Notes under the pieces: model-generated
Seen by the model: only the letters and a program-made list of their open reading frames with translations
Database searches by the model: none
What the model was told of the DNA's origin: nothing
NCBI GenBank assembly: GCA_963835065.1
Contig: CAWIEK010000053.1
Span: 1 to 64,000 of the forward strand
Source: an uncultured Chthonomonadaceae bacterium
GTDB lineage: Bacteria > Armatimonadota > Chthonomonadetes > Chthonomonadales > Chthonomonadaceae
Direction of reading: 5' to 3'
Length of the DNA: 64,000 bases
Program-made: the position numbers and the translations under genes
Shown: piece after piece, positions 21,734 through 40,078 of the stretch
Layout: each line of letters begins with the position of its first letter
How positions within the stretch are numbered: the first letter of the stretch is position 1

Positions 21734-21876
21734 AACCACGGAGAACACGGAGGACACGGAGAGTGAAGAGGAAAATACTTACCACGGATGAAACGGATAA
21801 CGCGGATTAACACGGATAAAGAGACGCCTTATGATTTGATCCGCGCTTATCTGTTCCATCCGTGTCCTCCGTGGTT
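21734..21876. repeat. Nested palindromic element A (CACGGAGRA outer arms, CACGGAT-type inner arms)
   Basis: AACCACGGAGAACACGGAGGACACGG ... CGCGGAT ... ATCCGCG ... CCGTGTCCTCCGTGGTT. Confidence 0.85.
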
Positions 21877-24741: not shown

Positions 24742-24796
24742 TTTAATCTAATCTTAATTTCCGCTTAATTTATCCTTAACCTTGCTCCGGCATACT
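24742..24796 (+). promoter_or_regulatory. Four YTTAAYYT boxes at 11-bp period (Pho-box/OmpR-family-like) followed by a candidate -10 CATACT
   Basis: TTTAATCT, CTTAATTT, CTTAATTT, CTTAACCT with TTAA at 24743, 24754, 24765, 24776; CATACT at 24791. Confidence 0.6.
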
Positions 24797-25051
24797 GAAG
24801 GCGTTCGTGAAAACAATTACTGACGCGCGAGTCGGAATGGAAGGGGCAGGGAACGAGCCGGAACTTTTTTCTTGCCCCGCAAAGCCTGTCCGCGATTTCT
24901 GCGGCCTTTCCCACCATTGGCACAACCTTGCGCGTCCTTCCTGCCAACACGCAGAGATTATCGCTTTCACACGCGACTCACGCAGGAATTTGCATGTTTG
25001 CTTGCCTGCCATTTTACGGTCTGTTGCAGGACACTCTCGAAAGGACGTTCC

Positions 25052-26008
25052 ATGCCACTTTCTTACCCAACGCCCAATGCCCAACACCCAACACCCAATA
25101 CAGGGAACAGGGAACAGGAAACAGGGAACAGAAGAAACTCAATCGAAAATCGAAAATCGAAAATCGAAAATCCCTCAGCCCTCAACCGGGCTTTCACCCT
25201 GATTGAACTGCTCGTAGTTATCGCCATCATCGCTATTCTTGCCGCTATTCTGTTCCCTGTTTTTGCCCAGGCGCGCGAATCGGCGCGGCGCACAAGCTGC
25301 CTGAGCAACATGAAGCAAATGAGCGTCTCGACCATGATGTACGTGCAGGATTTTGATGAGACATTCCCCATTGTTTACACCTCCCCGTGCAGCCACGCCG
25401 AGTACGTTCTGCTGTATCCCTACATGAAGAACCTCAACATCATGCAGTGCCCGGATGGGGGCACAACCGGCGGCTCGATTCCCGGCTGCGCCGTGACTGC
25501 CGGAGAAATCCCGGCGCAATCCGCCACCTTCCACACCCACTACGGCTACAACTGGGGTCCGCTGATTTATGCGGGCGGCGGGCTGCATGGGCCGGTGCAG
25601 AACGCGCCGCAGGGCGGCACGTTTCAGGACGGCAAATCTATCGCCGCGCTGGTCGCGCCCGCCGATGTGTTCGTGTATGGCGACAGCTACGATACCTATC
25701 GCCCGACAATGGGCATGGACTGGACGCTGGACTCCTACCCCGCTGCGACGGGAACGCAGGGCAGCATCCGGCACGGCGGCAAGTGGCAAATGGCGTTTGC
25801 CGACGGCCACGCCAAAATGGTGCAGTTCCGGGGCGGCGTGGTGGGAACCCACAAGTATGGCATTCCGCGCAAGCAGGAAGACTGGCCCAAATACTGCGCC
25901 AATCCCGACGAAATCATTGACCTCGGCCCCTCCTATGGACAGCCCAAGACCAGGTGCGGCGACATCGGCGCGTTGGTGAATTCCAAAATCACCTACTGGC
26001 CGGAATAA
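25052..26008 (+). CDS. Prepilin-type N-terminal cleavage/methylation protein (DUF1559-like, H-X9-DG)
   Basis: [31 protein letters not shown]...CLSNMKQ...[31 protein letters not shown] before ATG 25052. Confidence 0.92.
25066..25184 (+). repeat. Compound array of 17 in-register heptamers encoding the prepilin leader
   Basis: CCCAAYR x5, CAGRRRA x5, AACTCAA, TCGAAAA x4, KCCCTCA x2. Confidence 0.92.
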
Positions 26009-26076: not shown

Positions 26077-26334
26077 ATGACACTTCGTAAACACGCGCTC
26101 CTCGCGCTTTCCGCCTGCGCCCTCATGGGCGTTCTGCTGCTCCCCGGCTGCGGCGGCAAAGCCAATGACGAAACGCCCGCTCCCACCAAAGACGCCATGA
26201 AAGCCAGCCGCGAAGGGGGAGACGCGGGCACAACCGGCGCAACGACGACGCCCGCCGCGAATGGCGCTTCCACTCCGTCCGGCGGCGGTTCCCTCGCCAA
26301 CCCGCAGGCTCCGGGCGGCGGCAGCGGCAAGTAA
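26077..26334 (+). CDS. Small low-complexity lipoprotein
   Basis: MTLRKH + hydrophobic stretch + lipobox LPGC; AAAGG RBS. Confidence 0.8.
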   Translation: MTLRKHALLALSACALMGVLLLPGCGGKANDETPAPTKDAMKASREGGDAGTTGATTTPAANGASTPSGGGSLANPQAPGGGSGK

Positions 26335-27251: not shown

Positions 27252-27553
27252 GAACCACGGGGAACACGGGGAACACGGGGAGGAAAAGGGAATACGAGGA
27301 GGGGAACCGCGAAACACACGAACCAAACGAAAGAAAGACAAAAAACAGAGAAAATAGACAGGATTAACGGGATTTTCAGGATTAAACAGGATTACAAACA
27401 ACAAGGGCAGCCTGTCTCGTTCTGCTAAACTCCGGCAATGATCTGTGGACACTTCTTTTTGGCTTCTTTTCGTTTATTTCGTGTCTTTCGCGGTTCCTTG
27501 TCTCCTCTTCTCTCCCTATCTCCTCCCCGTGTCCCCCGTGTTCCCCGTGGTTC
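27252..27553. repeat. Nested palindromic element B
   Basis: Outer GAACCACGGGGAACACGGGG / CCCCGTGTTCCCCGTGGTTC; inner GGAACCGCGAAACACACGAA / TTCGTGTCTTTCGCGGTTCC; core GACAGGATTAACGGGATTTTCAGGATT. Confidence 0.9.
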
Positions 27554-29819: not shown

Positions 29820-32800
29820 TTATTTGCTGTCACGTTCCGCAACGGCGCGGGAACAGCGTTCGCACAGATCGGGATAAGCGGGGTTCCCGCCCACATCGCG
29901 TTTATCAAGCCAGCAGCGAGCGCACTTTTGGCCGACAGCAGTGTCTATCACGATACTATCTTGTTGATTTTGCTGCCCTTCGCTGATTGAAACATCCGAA
30001 ACGATAAATAGGGTCTTCATCATCTCTTCATACGTTCTTAGGAGCGCATAACGTTCGGGAGATAGCGTAATAGCTACTTGCGCTTCTAAAACTTTGCCAA
30101 TCTTACCAGATTGGCGCGCTACCTCCAACCCCTTCATTACTGCCTCGCGCAAAGCGAGTATTGGTTCCCACCGCGTCAGAAGATCAGTATCTACATTCGA
30201 GGCCGTCGGGAAATCCGCCAGATGAACGCTTTCCGCTTTGCCGGGCGTTTTCAGGTAATCCCACACTTCTTCGGTCGTGTGTACCAATATCGGGGCAAGC
30301 AGACGCGCCAGGGTTTCGGCAACGGTGTGCATGACCGTTTGCGCCGAGCGCCGTTCCCGCCAGTTTGCGCCGCTTGCGTACAGGCGATCCTTGATGACGT
30401 CGAGATAGAAACTGGACAGTTCCGTCGCGCAGAAGTTGAGAACCATCTGGTAGACGCGCTGAAACTCGTATTCTTCATACGCCGCCGTCGCGTTCTGCAC
30501 CAACCCGCCCAACTGCGCCAGCATCCAGCGATCCAGTTCCTCCATGTCCCCGACTTCTACCGTATCCGTCGCCGGGTTGAAGTCGTACAGGTTGTTGAGC
30601 AGGAAGCGGAACGTGTTGCGGACGCGCCGGTACATTTCGCCCACCTGTTTGAGCAGGTTTTCGCCGCACCGCGTATCCTCCATGAAACTTTGCGACGCCA
30701 CCCACCAGCGTACCACGTCCGCGCCGCTGTTTTTGATGACTTCCAGCGGGTTGACGCCGTTGCCCTTGCTTTTGCTGAACGCTTCGCCGTTTTCGTCCAG
30801 CGTCCAGCCGTTCGTGACCACGCTGCGATAGGGGGCGCGGCCTTTCGTGCCAACGCCGATCATCAGGCTGGAATTGAACCAACCCCGGTGCTGGTCGCCG
30901 CCTTCCAAATACAGGTCGGCGGGCCATTCCAGATCGGGCCAATGCGCCGTATTTTCCAAAACAGCGCGATTCGTGGAACCGGAATCGAACCACACGTCCA
31001 GCACATCGGTTTCCTTGCGCAGTTTGTCCACGCCCGAACCGCAGTGCGGACACGTAAAGCCGAGGGGCAGTATTTCGGACGCAGGCCGGGAGTACCAAAC
31101 ATCCGAGCCTTCCCGCGCCGTCATGTCCACCACCGCTTGTACGCTTTCTTTGGTCAGCACATGCTCGCCGCAATGGTCGCAGTAAAACGCCGGGATGCCT
31201 ACGCCCCACGCCCGCTGCCGCGACACGCACCAGTCGGGCCGATTGCCCACCATACTCGTGATCCGGTTCACGCTTTCACGCGGATACCACGCCACGTCGG
31301 CGATAGCGTTGAGCGCCTTCTGACGGAAAGGGAGTAGATGATAGTTGATGAGTGATGAGTTGATAGTTCGCTATCTTCTGTTCCCTGTTCCCTGTTCCCT
31401 GTTCCCTCACTTATCCCTTTTCCCTTATCCCTTATCCCTTCCTCATGGTCTATATTCATAAACCACTGCACGGTGGCGCGGAAGATGAGCGGGCTGTGGC
31501 AGCGCCAGCAGTGCGGGTAGGAGTGTTCGAACTTACTGGCTTGCAGCAGGTTGCCCGACTCGCGCAGGGCGTTGATGATAACCGGGTTGGCTTCCGCGTC
31601 CTGTCCTTTTTTGTCGCCCCAGGTTGTGACGCGCAGGCCCTCGAACTTGGTATCGCCGTATTCGCCCGCCTGCGCCGTGTAGCGTCCCGCCGCGTCAACC
31701 GGAGTCAGCACTTCCAGGCCGTACTTCAAGCCCGTCTCGAAGTCTTCCTTGCCATGCCCCGGCGCGGTATGCACCAGTCCCGTACCCGCATCCATCGTGA
31801 CGTAATCGGCCAGAACGACAGGCGACGTGCGATGAAACAGGGGATGCCGAAACACAAGCCCTTGCAGTCCCGCGCCGTTCAAGGTTTTCACCACTTCGTA
31901 GTTGTCTATTCCCGCCGCTTTCATCACCGAATCCACGAGCGGCACAGCAACCAGGTAAGCGTCCGTCTCGCCCTCGCTCCCTTTTGCCAGCACAACCGCA
32001 TACTCCGCGTCCGGGTGCGCCGCTATCGCCAGGTTCGCCGGTATCGTCCAGGGCGTCGTCGTCCAGATAACGGCGTAACAGTTGAGGGGATTGCCGATTG
32101 CCGATTGATCCTCTTCCGTATTCCCTTCCATGTTGAATACTCCCATCGGGTCATGGTGAAGCGGGAAGCGCACGTAGATGCTGTTGGACGTGTGATTTTC
32201 GTACTCCACTTCCGCGTCGGCGAGGGCGGTTTCGCAGGTCGCGCACCAGAACACGGGTTTGAGGCCGCGATAGATAAAGCCCTGCAAGGCCAGTTCGCCG
32301 AACACTTCAACGATTTTAGCCTCGAAGTCCTTGCTCATCGTTAAATACGGGATCGTCCCACTGCCCCCGTATGCCCAGCCGCTTGAACTGTTCGCGCTGC
32401 GTGTCCACCCACTTTGCCGCGTACTCACGACACGCCTGCCGCAGTTCCACGCGCCCCACCGCCTGCTTTTCCTCGCGGAATTTACGCGATACAGCGTTTT
32501 CGATGGGCATACCATGATTGTCCCAGCCCGGCACGTAGGGCGACGAATAGCCCTGCATCGTTCGGAAGCGGGTCACGATGTCTTTGGCGACTTTGTTGAG
32601 CGCATGACCCAGGTGGATGTCGCCGTTGCTGTAGGGCGGGCCGTCGTGCAGGATGAATTTGCCTTTGGGCGCGTGTTTGGCGACGCTTTTGCGGTACACG
32701 TCCAGGCTGTCCCAACGCGCCTGCACATCCGGCTCTTTGGCGGGCAGATTGCCCCGCTGCGGAAACGCGCCGGGGTCTTTGTCATTGAGCGTGATGTTGA

Positions 32801-32867
32801 GCGTGCCGCGATAATCGCGCTTCTCAGAAGTCGGTTGTTCTTGATCGGGTCGAACGGTAGTCGTCAT
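29820..32867 (-). CDS. ileS: Isoleucine--tRNA ligase (type 1); reading frame broken at ~32340 and ~31330-31350, probably sequence error
   Basis: LHDGPPYSNGDIHLGH, PGWDNHG, WTTTPWT, GTGLVHTAPGHG, HSYPHCWR, DWCVSRQR, DVWFDSG, EGGDQHRGWF, C-terminal CARCW...CERC. Confidence 0.95.
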
Positions 32868-32889
32868 TGTAAAAGTCCTCAATACGGTT

Positions 32890-33221
32890 TTCACCACCCG
32901 CTCCGCTAGAGGCACAGAGGCACAGAGGGGAAGAAAAGAAGAAAAGAAGAAGAGAAGAAAAGGAGATAGGGAACCGCGAAACACACGAAATAAACGAAAA
33001 AAGACGAAAAGAACACAAATAAATTTACAGATACCACCGCATATTTAGAACAAACAGGCTTACCTTCTCGGTTTTTAATCCTGCAAATCCCGTTAATCCT
33101 GTCTATTTCTTTTGTTCTTTTTTCGTCTTGGTTCGTGTGTTTCGCGGTTCCCCAGTTTCTCTCTTTCTCGTATTGGCTTTTCCTCTGTGTCTCTGTGCCT
33201 CTAGCCGTAGGCGGGTGGTTC
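32890..33221. repeat. Nested palindromic element C in the ileS leader
   Basis: Outer ACCACCCGC..GCTAGAGGCACAGAGGCACAGAG / CTCTGTGTCTCTGTGCCTCTAGC..GCGGGTGGT; inner GGGAACCGCGAAACACACGAA / TTCGTGTGTTTCGCGGTTCCC; core AATCCTGCAAATCCCGTTAATCCTGTC. Confidence 0.9.
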
Positions 33222-37245: not shown

Positions 37246-40078
37246 TCAGGAATTCGGTTCGCCAAACTCCGCGTCAAGATACTCTTGTACGAGGTTGTCG
37301 AAACCGATGGACAGCCACGCAACGCGGGCGGCGGCGACATGCGCCTGCTGTGTGGCGGCATCGGGCGCGACTTGCGCCAGGCGGTAGCGCGTGACGCCGA
37401 TGGAATACGGTTCCGGTATTTGCGCGTACAGGCGTAACGCCTCCTCATAGCGCAGACGAGCCACATCGTTGTTTGCGCGCGAGCGCGCAATGTCGCCTAA
37501 ACTCTGGATGCAATTCGCCTGCCCCAACACATCGCCGACATTCTCATACAAGGGTTGCGCCTGTTCGTACAAGCGGCGGGCTTGTTCATGCTCGGAACGC
37601 GCCAGCGCAATGTCGCCTAAACTCTGGATACAATTCGCCTGCCCCAACACAGAGCCGACATTCTCATACAAGGGTTGCGCTTGTTCGTACAAGCGGCGGG
37701 CTTGTTCGTGTTCGGAACGCGCCAGCGCAATGTCGCCTAAACTCTGGATGCAGTTCGCCTGCCCCAACACAGAGCCGACATTCTCATACAAGGGTTGCGC
37801 TTGCTCGTACAAGCGGCGGGCTTGTTCGTGTTCGGAACGCGCCAGCGCAATGTCGCCTAAACTCTGGATGCAGTTCGCCTGCCCCAACACAGAGCCGACA
37901 TTCTCATACAAGGGTTGCGCCTGTTCGTACAAGCGGCGGGCTTGTTCGTGTTCGGAACGCGCCAGCGCAATGTCGCCTAAACTCTGGATGCAGTTCGCCT
38001 GCCCCAACACATCGCCGACCTGTACAAAGAGCGGCTGCGCCTGTTCGTACAAGCGGCGGGCTTGTTCGTGTTCGGAACGGCGCAGCGCAATGTCGCCTAA
38101 ACTACTGGATGCAGTTCGCCTGCCCCAACACATCGCCGACGCGCAACGCTGCGCGTTGCGCGGATTCCTGCAATTGAATTGCTTCCGCGCCGTAGATGCT
38201 CAGGTAGAGGAAATCGCGCAGGGAAGAGGCCAGAGGCATCAGCGCCTCCCAGTAGTCATTCGCTTGCTCCGCGAATTCAGCGGCGCGGAGGGCGTTGCGC
38301 CATTCAGCCCGCAGCACGGCATATTGTTCCGGGAGGTTGATGTTTCCATTTGCCTGTATCAACTGGACGTAGTGGGCAACGTACCGCTGCTGTATCGCCT
38401 CGGCATCCTGTGGCATTTCGGCGCGTAACCGCCGCAGGGCATACTCGCGGAACACGGGCAGCAGGCGATAGCGCACGATGTCGTCGGCTTCGCGGCTTTC
38501 CAGCAGGTGTATGTGGTTCCACTTGACCAGCAGCGCGTCGGCAACGCCGCAAATCGCTTCCGCCGCGTCCGGGGCGAAGTCGTAGGCGAAGATTCCCAGA
38601 CGCGGAAACAGCGCCTGCTGCGCGTCGGGGAGGGTCTGCACCGACCAGTGGATGCAGGCTTCCATGCTGACGTGGCGCAGACTGTCGGCGCGGGCATAGC
38701 CGTATTCCTCGCGCGTTTTTTGCCAATCCAGCAGGCTGTCGCTCAGGCCGTCGGCGATCTGTTTGAGCGTCTTCATCTGGCGCAGCGCGGCGGTCAACTC
38801 GATGCCGAGCGGAAACCCTGCCGTATGTTCCAGAATACGGCGCAGCGAGTTCACGTCGCTGATGTCCTTTACGGGCCGGTGCTGCTCCACGCGCGCCCGG
38901 AACAACTTGCAGCCGTCCAATGCCTCCATGTTTTCCCCGTCATGCGGCACGGGCAGGCCGGGAATCTCGTATGTTTCGCTGAACGGTTCCAGCATGATTT
39001 TGTCGCGGCTGGTGACGAGCCACCGCATGGCGTCCACGTTCTGAATCAGGTCGCCGAGCCAGCGCAGCGTAGCGGGATTGACCATGCTTTCGCCGTTGTC
39101 CAGAAACATCAGCGTGGACGCGCGGGTTTGCAGATGGTTTTCCAGCCGGGTTTTGCCGTTCGCGTCGGAGGCAAGCGGCTCCTCCATAACGGGTTTCGGG
39201 GCCTCAATGGCGCGGGCAATCGCTCCGGCCAGCAATTCGGGCGTCACCTTGTCGGGCGCGTTGCCGAACTCCCGGTCGAGCGACACGCCATGAATGTTGC
39301 CCCGGAAGTCGCCGCACACGGCCAGAATGGTTTGGATGGCAAGCCGGGTTTTACCGATGCCGCCCGGTCCGTGCAGCGTCAGGAGGGGTTTTTTGCCCCG
39401 CAGCCACGTTACCACGTCCTCAATCTGCCGGTCACGTCCGATGAATTTATTGCCTTCGCGCCGCATCCACGCGGGCAGCCAGCGCGTACCGGGTTCGCGC
39501 GGTTCCTGCCCCGCATACCACAGCAGTTCGTGAACCGTTTCGGGCTGCTGATGGTAGCTCTTGATATAGCGGTTGGGCCAGGGATAAAAGTCGTAGACCT
39601 GCCGACTGCCCGCGCGGTCATGGGCGGACGCCGACACGAGTATCTGCCCGCCCTTGCCCAAGTCTTCCACGCGCTTGGCGTAATTGATGTCCTCGCCATG
39701 ATACAGCCCGGCGGCGTCCGGCTTCATGTCTTTTTCCGCGCGATGCAGGCCGATGCGTATCTTGATTGTCCATGTCACGCCGTTTCGCGTACAGGTAATG
39801 GGCGCTTGCGTCAGACGTTCCTGCATGGCGCGGGCGCAGGCCAGCGCCTCGTCCACATGCTGAAACACGATCATCAGGCTGTCGCCGGCAGGCGTGCCGT
39901 TTTCGTAGCCGTTGTGTTCCGGCGCGTTCAGGCACTCGCGGAGAACGTCAAAATGCGGGTCGCGCAGTTCGCCGTGATAGAGAGCGTCGCCAAGCGCCTT
40001 GTTCATCAGCGACGAGTCCTCAACATCGGTAAACAAGATGGTGACGCTGCCATGCGGCAGTGGGGCGGGCGGTGTCAT
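37246..40078 (-). CDS. Class III nucleotide cyclase + STAND/NB-ARC NTPase + TPR repeat protein; +1 indel at ~38104
   Basis: LFTDVEDSS, AGDSLM, RIGLH, INYAKRV, GGQILVS; GPGGIGKTRLA, FLDNGE, LVTSR, GFPLGIEL; 40-aa TPR-like repeats. Confidence 0.9.
37487..38140 (-). repeat. 120-bp near-identical tandem repeat (~5.5 units) encoding TPR-like units
   Basis: GCAATGTCGCCTAAACTCTGGAT recurs at 37487, 37607, 37727, 37847, 37967 and 38087 (last has an extra A). Confidence 0.95.

Follow-up and report, generated by a model that had tools for sequence, protein, structure and literature searches.

The 47-residue leader of a predicted prepilin gene is, with a probability that we put at about 0.7, an in-frame patchwork of four arms drawn from a genome-wide heptamer repeat family; on this reading its predicted removal is the likely reason for its tolerance, and it was probably acquired from a sister prepilin by recombination. 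The arrays are likely a recent, frame-filtered passenger of that dispersed family rather than an on/off switch, and in the leader they are probably neutral. All positions are those of the window, the whole stretch of 64,000 nucleotides that was analyzed.

A predicted prepilin gene with a long leader

The gene, the parts of its leader and the neighboring gene are as follows.

25041..25054, + strand: SD-like word and ATG start, the SD word lying 6 nt 5' of ATG 25052
25052..26008, + strand: prepilin-type N-methylation / DUF1559 gene with a C-terminal H-X9-DG, 318 aa (PF07963, PF07596, TIGR02532)
25052..25192, + strand: leader of 47 residues, predicted to be removed by prepilin peptidase
25065..25098, + strand: array 1, 4.9 units, C-rich "right-arm" type (Tandem Repeats Finder)
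25100..25131, + strand: array 2, 4.6 units, G-rich "left-arm" type (Tandem Repeats Finder)
25132..25140, + strand: unique spacer, 9 nt
25141..25172, + strand: array 3, 4.6 perfect units, right-arm type, non-complementary to array 2 (Tandem Repeats Finder)
25173..25186, + strand: array 4, 2-unit remnant of a right arm
25190..25207, + strand: predicted prepilin peptidase site A/FTLIE, cut at 25192/25193 (PF07963, translation)
26077..26334, + strand: small lipoprotein-like gene, 85 aa (lipobox by eye)

The protein encoded at 25052-26008 scored above the cut-offs of PF07963 (30.4 bits), PF07596 (34.2 bits) and TIGR02532, and its C-terminal H-X9-DG was read from the translation, no model of that element being among those listed for the protein. 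It has the N-terminal methylation motif, with a small residue at position -1, F at +1 and E at +5, and the genome has 77 genes with the prepilin motif, this one included, as well as a prepilin peptidase gene (PF01478). The names given to homologues of the protein suggest Armatimonadota. The leader is not of the short basic kind: its array part has a net charge of +3, and its 47 residues compare with 4 to 19 in the homologues that have the motif (62/62). ATG 25052 is the sole in-frame ATG across the 240 nt upstream of the cleavage site, and we infer that translation starts there. The original prediction had placed the array in frame between the RBS/ATG 25052 and the RA/FTLIE site, which we confirmed, as no in-frame ATG, GTG or TTG lies between 25052 and the cleavage site. 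That the arrays are untranslated, with a start farther downstream, or are an assembly artefact is extremely improbable: translation of the leader is a prediction and near-duplicate segments of this genome contain 616 1-nt indels in 302 kb, but an internal start codon is missing, all 24 array leaders of the genome are in open frames, and the same composite of arrays is present in other genomes.

The small lipoprotein-like gene has counterparts in the orthologues L002-L005, where a similar small ORF also lies 3'. Upstream of the prepilin gene, at 24745-24780, A/T-rich direct repeats with an 11-bp period were seen, with similar boxes before several orthologues; they are possibly a response-regulator site.

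Composition of the leader arrays

The 25066-25184 stretch had originally been parsed into 17 heptamer blocks. The text of this parse was correct, but two of its blocks cover the 9-nt spacer, so that the four runs comprise about 15 units. The "preserved 7-nt register" of these blocks proved to be a parsing artefact: all 7 starting offsets yielded runs of identical heptamers, and register is uninformative because a period-7 run parses into identical blocks from any phase. Genome-wide, the phase offsets between neighboring families take many values and are clustered for some family pairs only, a clustering that probably stems from a shared inherited spacer. Since all offsets parse and genome-wide offsets vary, we rejected register as evidence of mechanism.

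Array 2 belongs to the most abundant family of the genome (303 arrays). The core formed by array 2, the spacer at 25132-25140 and array 3 recurs at about 9 non-prepilin sites here and also in the genomes G002 and G049; the spacer is further shared with 3 paralogous leaders. Elsewhere, this composite lies mostly in frame within unrelated proteins, and the final 13 nt of the leader were found once more, within a non-prepilin gene. Folding gave no RNA hairpin in the 25052-25192 leader (z=-0.07), from which convergent complementary arms are absent though they are present genome-wide; a cognate inverted pair elsewhere in the window folds at z=-8.96.

The arrays belong to a dispersed repeat family

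The genome contains 1,330 exact heptamer arrays of at least 3 copies and a codon-shuffled version contains none; just 22 of the 1,330 are longer than 35 nt. With mismatches allowed, we counted 2,334 heptamer and 592 octamer arrays, compared to 1 and 0 after shuffling. Array size is mostly 4 to 5 units genome-wide, usually as inverted pairs, and 2,849 of the 2,926 arrays fall into 25 families, several of which lack any run of three G. The 25052-25192 locus is not special; it is one among ∼2,900 such arrays. The inverted pairs follow one order in 546 cases and the opposite in 10, with the G- or purine-rich arm first, and this majority order defines the "left" arm. Stacked arms of differing families also show a preferred order; in the two most frequent pairs, one order outnumbers the other by 28 to 2 and 25 to 0.

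Genes were called with a simple purpose-made gene finder, which gave 4,688 well-scored genes, and 723 of these (15%) have an array at most 100 nt upstream. Array clusters internal to the 4,688 genes number ∼338, and 38 clusters are N-terminally translated, of which 15 are in prepilins. Among 200 arrays with coding DNA on both flanks, 187 were in frame and 13 apparently out of frame, far fewer than the two thirds that would be out of frame if nothing constrained them; coding arrays with 2, 3, and 5 units also exist. Apparent frameshifts were nonetheless in threefold excess over control windows (13/200 vs 41/2,035, p=6.5e-4), an excess that could come from sequencing error or from a degree of genuine slippage. 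We also considered RNA-level excision of the out-of-frame arrays and dropped it, because with 187/200 arrays in frame it is not needed.

Left and right neighbors were cognate in 456/632 cases outside coding DNA but in 13/185 inside, coding copies being nearly all non-complementary hybrids and most non-coding copies hairpin-forming pairs. On the sense strand, each family is mainly used in one orientation. Coding DNA thus presumably filters out stop codons and hydrophobic readings, and therefore hybrids such as the 25052-25192 leader remain. In 100/147 internal copies of the family of array 2, translation exits the array in one and the same frame, and this exit frame is used by 3/18 prepilin leaders, a low use that may be explained by their shared ancestry.

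Frame breaks were also seen in the window in an ileS-like gene on the minus strand (29820-32984), which we take to be ileS and which lies in three pieces. It has an extra base near 32350, where there is no array, and a frame break in the compound array at 31335-31440, at which the frame is also broken in G002 and intact in G001. The breaks are probably assembly errors, to which the one-base break at an array-free site points.

Array leaders among prepilin paralogues

Inspection of the leaders of other prepilin paralogues, which had been proposed along with the original prediction, revealed array leaders of 16 to 58 residues in 24 of the 77 prepilin-motif genes, all 24 being open with an in-frame upstream start; for this count, 2 false motif hits were removed and 1 degenerate array was added by eye, and the 24 include 1 duplicate. 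When starts were searched for without regard to frame, an SD-preceded start was present in 19 leaders, in frame in 17 of them, and absent from 4. The array rate of prepilin leaders (31%) compares with at most 85 of ∼4,600 other N-termini, an enrichment whose p-values overstate the case because paralogues are not independent. Repeat families differ between leaders. In G001 and G002, none of the top-scoring loci has an array leader, and in G002 8 of 15 loci picked for a weak N-terminal match do.

The enrichment, a fixed array size of ∼4.5 units and the G002 array leaders are what one would expect if the arrays were domesticated, with a repeat-binding protein (possibly a four-helix-bundle protein) tuning translation, or with the long leader altering processing. 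We regard such a regulatory role as improbable. Paralogue transfer alone can explain the enrichment, families vary from leader to leader, a relative 95% identical to the protein lacks the array, and RNA structure is lacking. Nor did we detect charge selection on the leaders relative to their two other frames (n=22, p=0.97), and selection for a basic leader was discarded on these numbers.

The relative in question, P0002, is 95% identical over 45% of the query and has a 14-residue non-repeat leader. A leader wholly different in so close a relative, together with the lack of charge selection, bears out the earlier view that the leader sequence is nearly unconstrained. By eye, 19 related loci showed no arrays. 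Because P0002 and the 62/62 motif-bearing homologues have short leaders, that of P0002 being non-repeat, the array leader of the 25052-26008 gene appears to be a recent gain. A metagenome scan returned 3 loci at 38-67% identity, and a literature search on the tolerance of leader length found nothing.

The phylogeny of the paralogues gave no support to a single array-bearing clade: in a quick-search tree of 62 paralogues, weak in that 5/58 inner branches are well supported, the array state needs 18 changes for 22 array leaves, against a shuffled mean of 18.2. The nearest paralogues of the 25052-26008 gene are without arrays, and its leader aligns with those of three distant paralogues whose C-terminal domain is just 21-25% identical. 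These four paralogues have in common the 3' junction of the leader and a rare right-to-left junction, which lies at the start of this leader; right-arm-to-left-arm junctions of at most 25 nt number 4 in the genome, and 4/4 are in prepilin leaders. A second leader type is confined to 5 prepilins. Between the C1 and C29 paralogues, 0/90 leader nt and 4/90 of the next nt differ, followed by full divergence, and this tract, which extends into the N-methyl helix, is a clear case of transfer. The leader ends in Ala in 21/22 array leaders vs 16/40 plain leaders.

Mobile array units might instead have been inserted directly and independently into each leader, the similar leaders then reflecting a common donor element. 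Direct insertion of this kind is possible given the core composite at non-prepilin sites here and in G002 and G049, and the single copy of the last 13 leader nt within a non-prepilin gene fits it as well. In addition, the transfer signal of this leader's own group is not significant (11.5 differences in the 84 nt past the cleavage site vs 13.9 in random paralogues, p=0.12), which leaves room for direct insertion. It is nevertheless rather unlikely in our judgment, as it has to accommodate the two junctions common to the four paralogues, the restriction of the second leader type to 5 prepilins, the entry of the C1/C29 tract into the N-methyl helix, and the bias toward Ala-ending array leaders. 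Copying from a sister prepilin by recombination is the reading that we prefer.

Length changes and phase variation

The original prediction had also proposed a possible ON/OFF switch, in which gain or loss of one or two units would frameshift the gene. We compared such a switch with that of neuO in E. coli K1. In the available excerpt on neuO (PMC3046976), a heptanucleotide repeat present in 2-93 copies lies right after the start codon. As in neuO, a non-triplet repeat unit occupies the 5' coding region at 25052-25192, here of a predicted surface protein, and the frame is kept only by multiples of three units. Array 3, with its 4.6 perfect copies, might seem suited to slippage, prepilin leaders are enriched in arrays (24/77, against the 15% of genes with an array upstream), single-unit changes do exist, and apparent frameshifts at coding arrays are about three times the control rate.

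However, none of the 24 array leaders is closed, and the 3/3 indels among four homologous leaders are exactly 21 nt, two of them possibly representing one event. We then counted unit changes in near-duplicate segments, probably strain haplotypes, which total 302 kb at ∼2% divergence, with a few segments counted in more than one pair. Unit number differed, by one, in 2/111 arrays, both at gene ends, and was unchanged in the other 109. The ∼338 internal sites, moreover, hold the same kind of arrays in frame. Long variable copy number and out-of-frame alleles were not found, as runs do not exceed 5 units and 0/24 leaders are closed, whereas neuO, according to the same excerpt, has a single long pure array that switches frequently; the four short runs here are apparently stable. 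On these comparisons phase variation is unlikely for this leader, and a slippage switch of the neuO type is among the readings to which we give very little weight. Among the sequencing runs that were screened, none contained as many as half of the sequence words, and no RNA run was among those listed. In contigs of relatives from four sequencing runs, no piece spans the array; the match of one relative's piece ends at 25054, and the listed joints are probably derived from paralogues.

Turnover of arrays at fixed sites

Among 16 gaps between aligned blocks of the duplicate segments, 3 gene junctions hold different 7/8-mer families. At one of them, a full four-helix-bundle cassette (G000:C25:13979-14571) stands opposite a gene-less pair of another heptamer family at the same junction (G000:C37:183100-183225). 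At another (G000:C36:2014-2179 vs G000:C61:8573-8755), both arms switch family, 7-mer vs 8-mer, and the spacers retain partial homology. As to a possible MITE or IS derivative, none of the 16 gaps sets a 7/8-mer array against an empty site, the 3 differing sites being replacements. In ileS, one loop carries arrays that differ among 3 genomes of the same genus, and 2 other genera have no array there. The suggestion of one mechanism that adds units thus survives in part: its argument from register falls, while the junction swaps and the ileS loop indicate that arrays seem to be repeatedly added or replaced at occupied sites, apparently by one process. Recombination with diverged strains could be an alternative source of the family swaps. 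We also noted a 9-mer-like repeat hairpin at G000:C8:207-384 opposite a REP-like palindrome at the same site in G000:C20:16212-16370.

Four-helix-bundle cassettes and a proposed origin

PF05635 proteins have an Avd-like fold and form pentamers, and PF05635 / TIGR02436 is the 23S rRNA intervening-sequence protein. All 3/3 PF05635 genes of this genome are bracketed by inverted arrays, as judged by eye, with a different family at each. We surveyed the 44 best-scoring PF05635 loci (one search alone gave 243 matches); 3 of them gave no hit in tblastn, and the flanks of 4 were truncated. Among the 37 scored best-scoring loci, arrays lie on one side or both at 33 and on both sides at 13, and a cognate inverted pair is present at 11/37, compared to 0/70 control windows. 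The arms at these 37 loci include 2 of the 4 families of the leader: the family of array 2 flanks a four-helix-bundle gene in L021, with a variant of it at G000:C25, and that of array 4 flanks such genes in L024, L026, and L027. PF05635 / TIGR02436 genes are thus bracketed by the same kind of arrays as those in the leader. Unlike such a cassette, the 25052-25192 locus has no PF05635 gene, the 3 of this genome lying elsewhere; the genome has these 3 genes for 25 repeat families, and G001 has arrays of the same kind and no PF05635 hit. A role of the protein in moving arrays is a proposal, and the heptamer arms of the leader would be gene-less derivatives of a four-helix-bundle cassette.

The leader could have arisen as follows. 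A four-helix-bundle cassette would lose its gene and leave arms, and occupied sites would be overwritten or extended again and again, giving composites. Within coding DNA, only in-frame, stop-free arm orientations would survive. With the conserved DNA of the N-methyl helix as one recombination anchor, an array leader could then pass between paralogues, after which a change in length would persist only if it comprised three units (21 nt) or a multiple of that.

A broader reading, which we hold only tentatively and think more doubtful than probable, is that an undescribed mobile system has left the arrays behind as its footprints. In it, four-helix-bundle proteins, each recognizing ∼5 heptamers of its own, would help to write 4-5-unit arms at junctions and occupied sites by overwriting and stacking; the cleaved leader would record successive events, and recombination at the N-methyl helix would spread them over the 77 paralogues. 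This reading builds on a single writing mechanism, for which the junction swaps and the ileS loop provide support.

Relation to known repeats

The comparisons below refer to the excerpts available of each cited source. The heptamers of Xanthomonas and Nostoc are dispersed, prefer four units and form convergent inverted pairs, with the G-rich arm just past stop codons, and phase variation was deemed unlikely for them (Rehm et al. 2015, PMC4692102). The arrays described here resemble them in having about four units, in their dispersal and in their inverted pairs genome-wide, and differ in that 25 families coexist, many without G-tracts, and in that they form non-complementary composites and are translated in hundreds of copies; the excerpt of that paper connects its repeats neither with four-helix-bundle genes nor with pilin leaders. 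That heptamers are in excess in bacteria was first remarked on in 2007 and is still without an explanation, as summarized in excerpts of PMC4692102 and PMC4679880.

Rickettsia palindromic elements lie in frame in many unrelated genes and are predicted to be tolerated (Ogata et al. 2000, 2002, via an excerpt of PMC10969869). In-frame insertion in many unrelated genes is likewise seen here (338 clusters, 187/200 arrays), but these elements are ∼150-bp palindromes with a conserved peptide, whereas ours are tandem heptamer arms, mostly non-palindromic hybrids, read in any frame. The leader array works like a Rickettsia palindromic element but is not one. In the P6b stem of the Nostoc tRNA-Leu(UAA) intron, heptamer classes replace each other at one site by a mechanism that the excerpt gives as unknown (PMC4476775); that case concerns one non-coding site and two classes, the present one many families genome-wide and coding sites too. 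The TAACTGA repeats of Beggiatoaceae form heptamer sets near start codons, are patchy across phyla and are found within some ORFs (PMC4679880); in that excerpt they are a single unit, mostly untranslated and proposed as a regulator binding site. Our literature search, which covered few subscription journals, found nothing that ties heptamer arrays to four-helix-bundle genes or prepilin leaders.

For the leader itself, the outcome is mostly sobering, the arrays being in all likelihood a passenger and no switch. The genome is an extreme and quantifiable case, with 25 families, hundreds of translated copies and family swaps between near-identical segments, one of them involving a full four-helix-bundle cassette, and this makes the origin of the repeats directly testable. 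What it adds is scale, the contrast between cognate and hybrid copies, the evidence of transfer among paralogues, and counts of swaps and slips. It also carries a warning: automated gene calling will place the starts of such pilins wrongly, and an array leader can pass from one paralogue to another.

Other repeats and genes

Two reverse transcriptases are encoded in the genome, and we saw no link between them and the arrays. One, at G000:C49:681483-683452, lies between a cas2-like and a cas1-like gene, neighbors that we take to be CRISPR cas1/cas2-like; the second is presumably retron-like. The 3/3 GxxExxY (PF13366) genes (G000:C19:8329, C39:76631, and C3:174084) are flanked by inverted 8/9-mer repeats, which resemble repeats in the window at 21737-21820, 27256-27549, and 32908-33202. 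The window also contains, at 37485-38140, a 120-bp tandem repeat of 5.5 copies with 95% identity, which lies within a minus-strand ORF.
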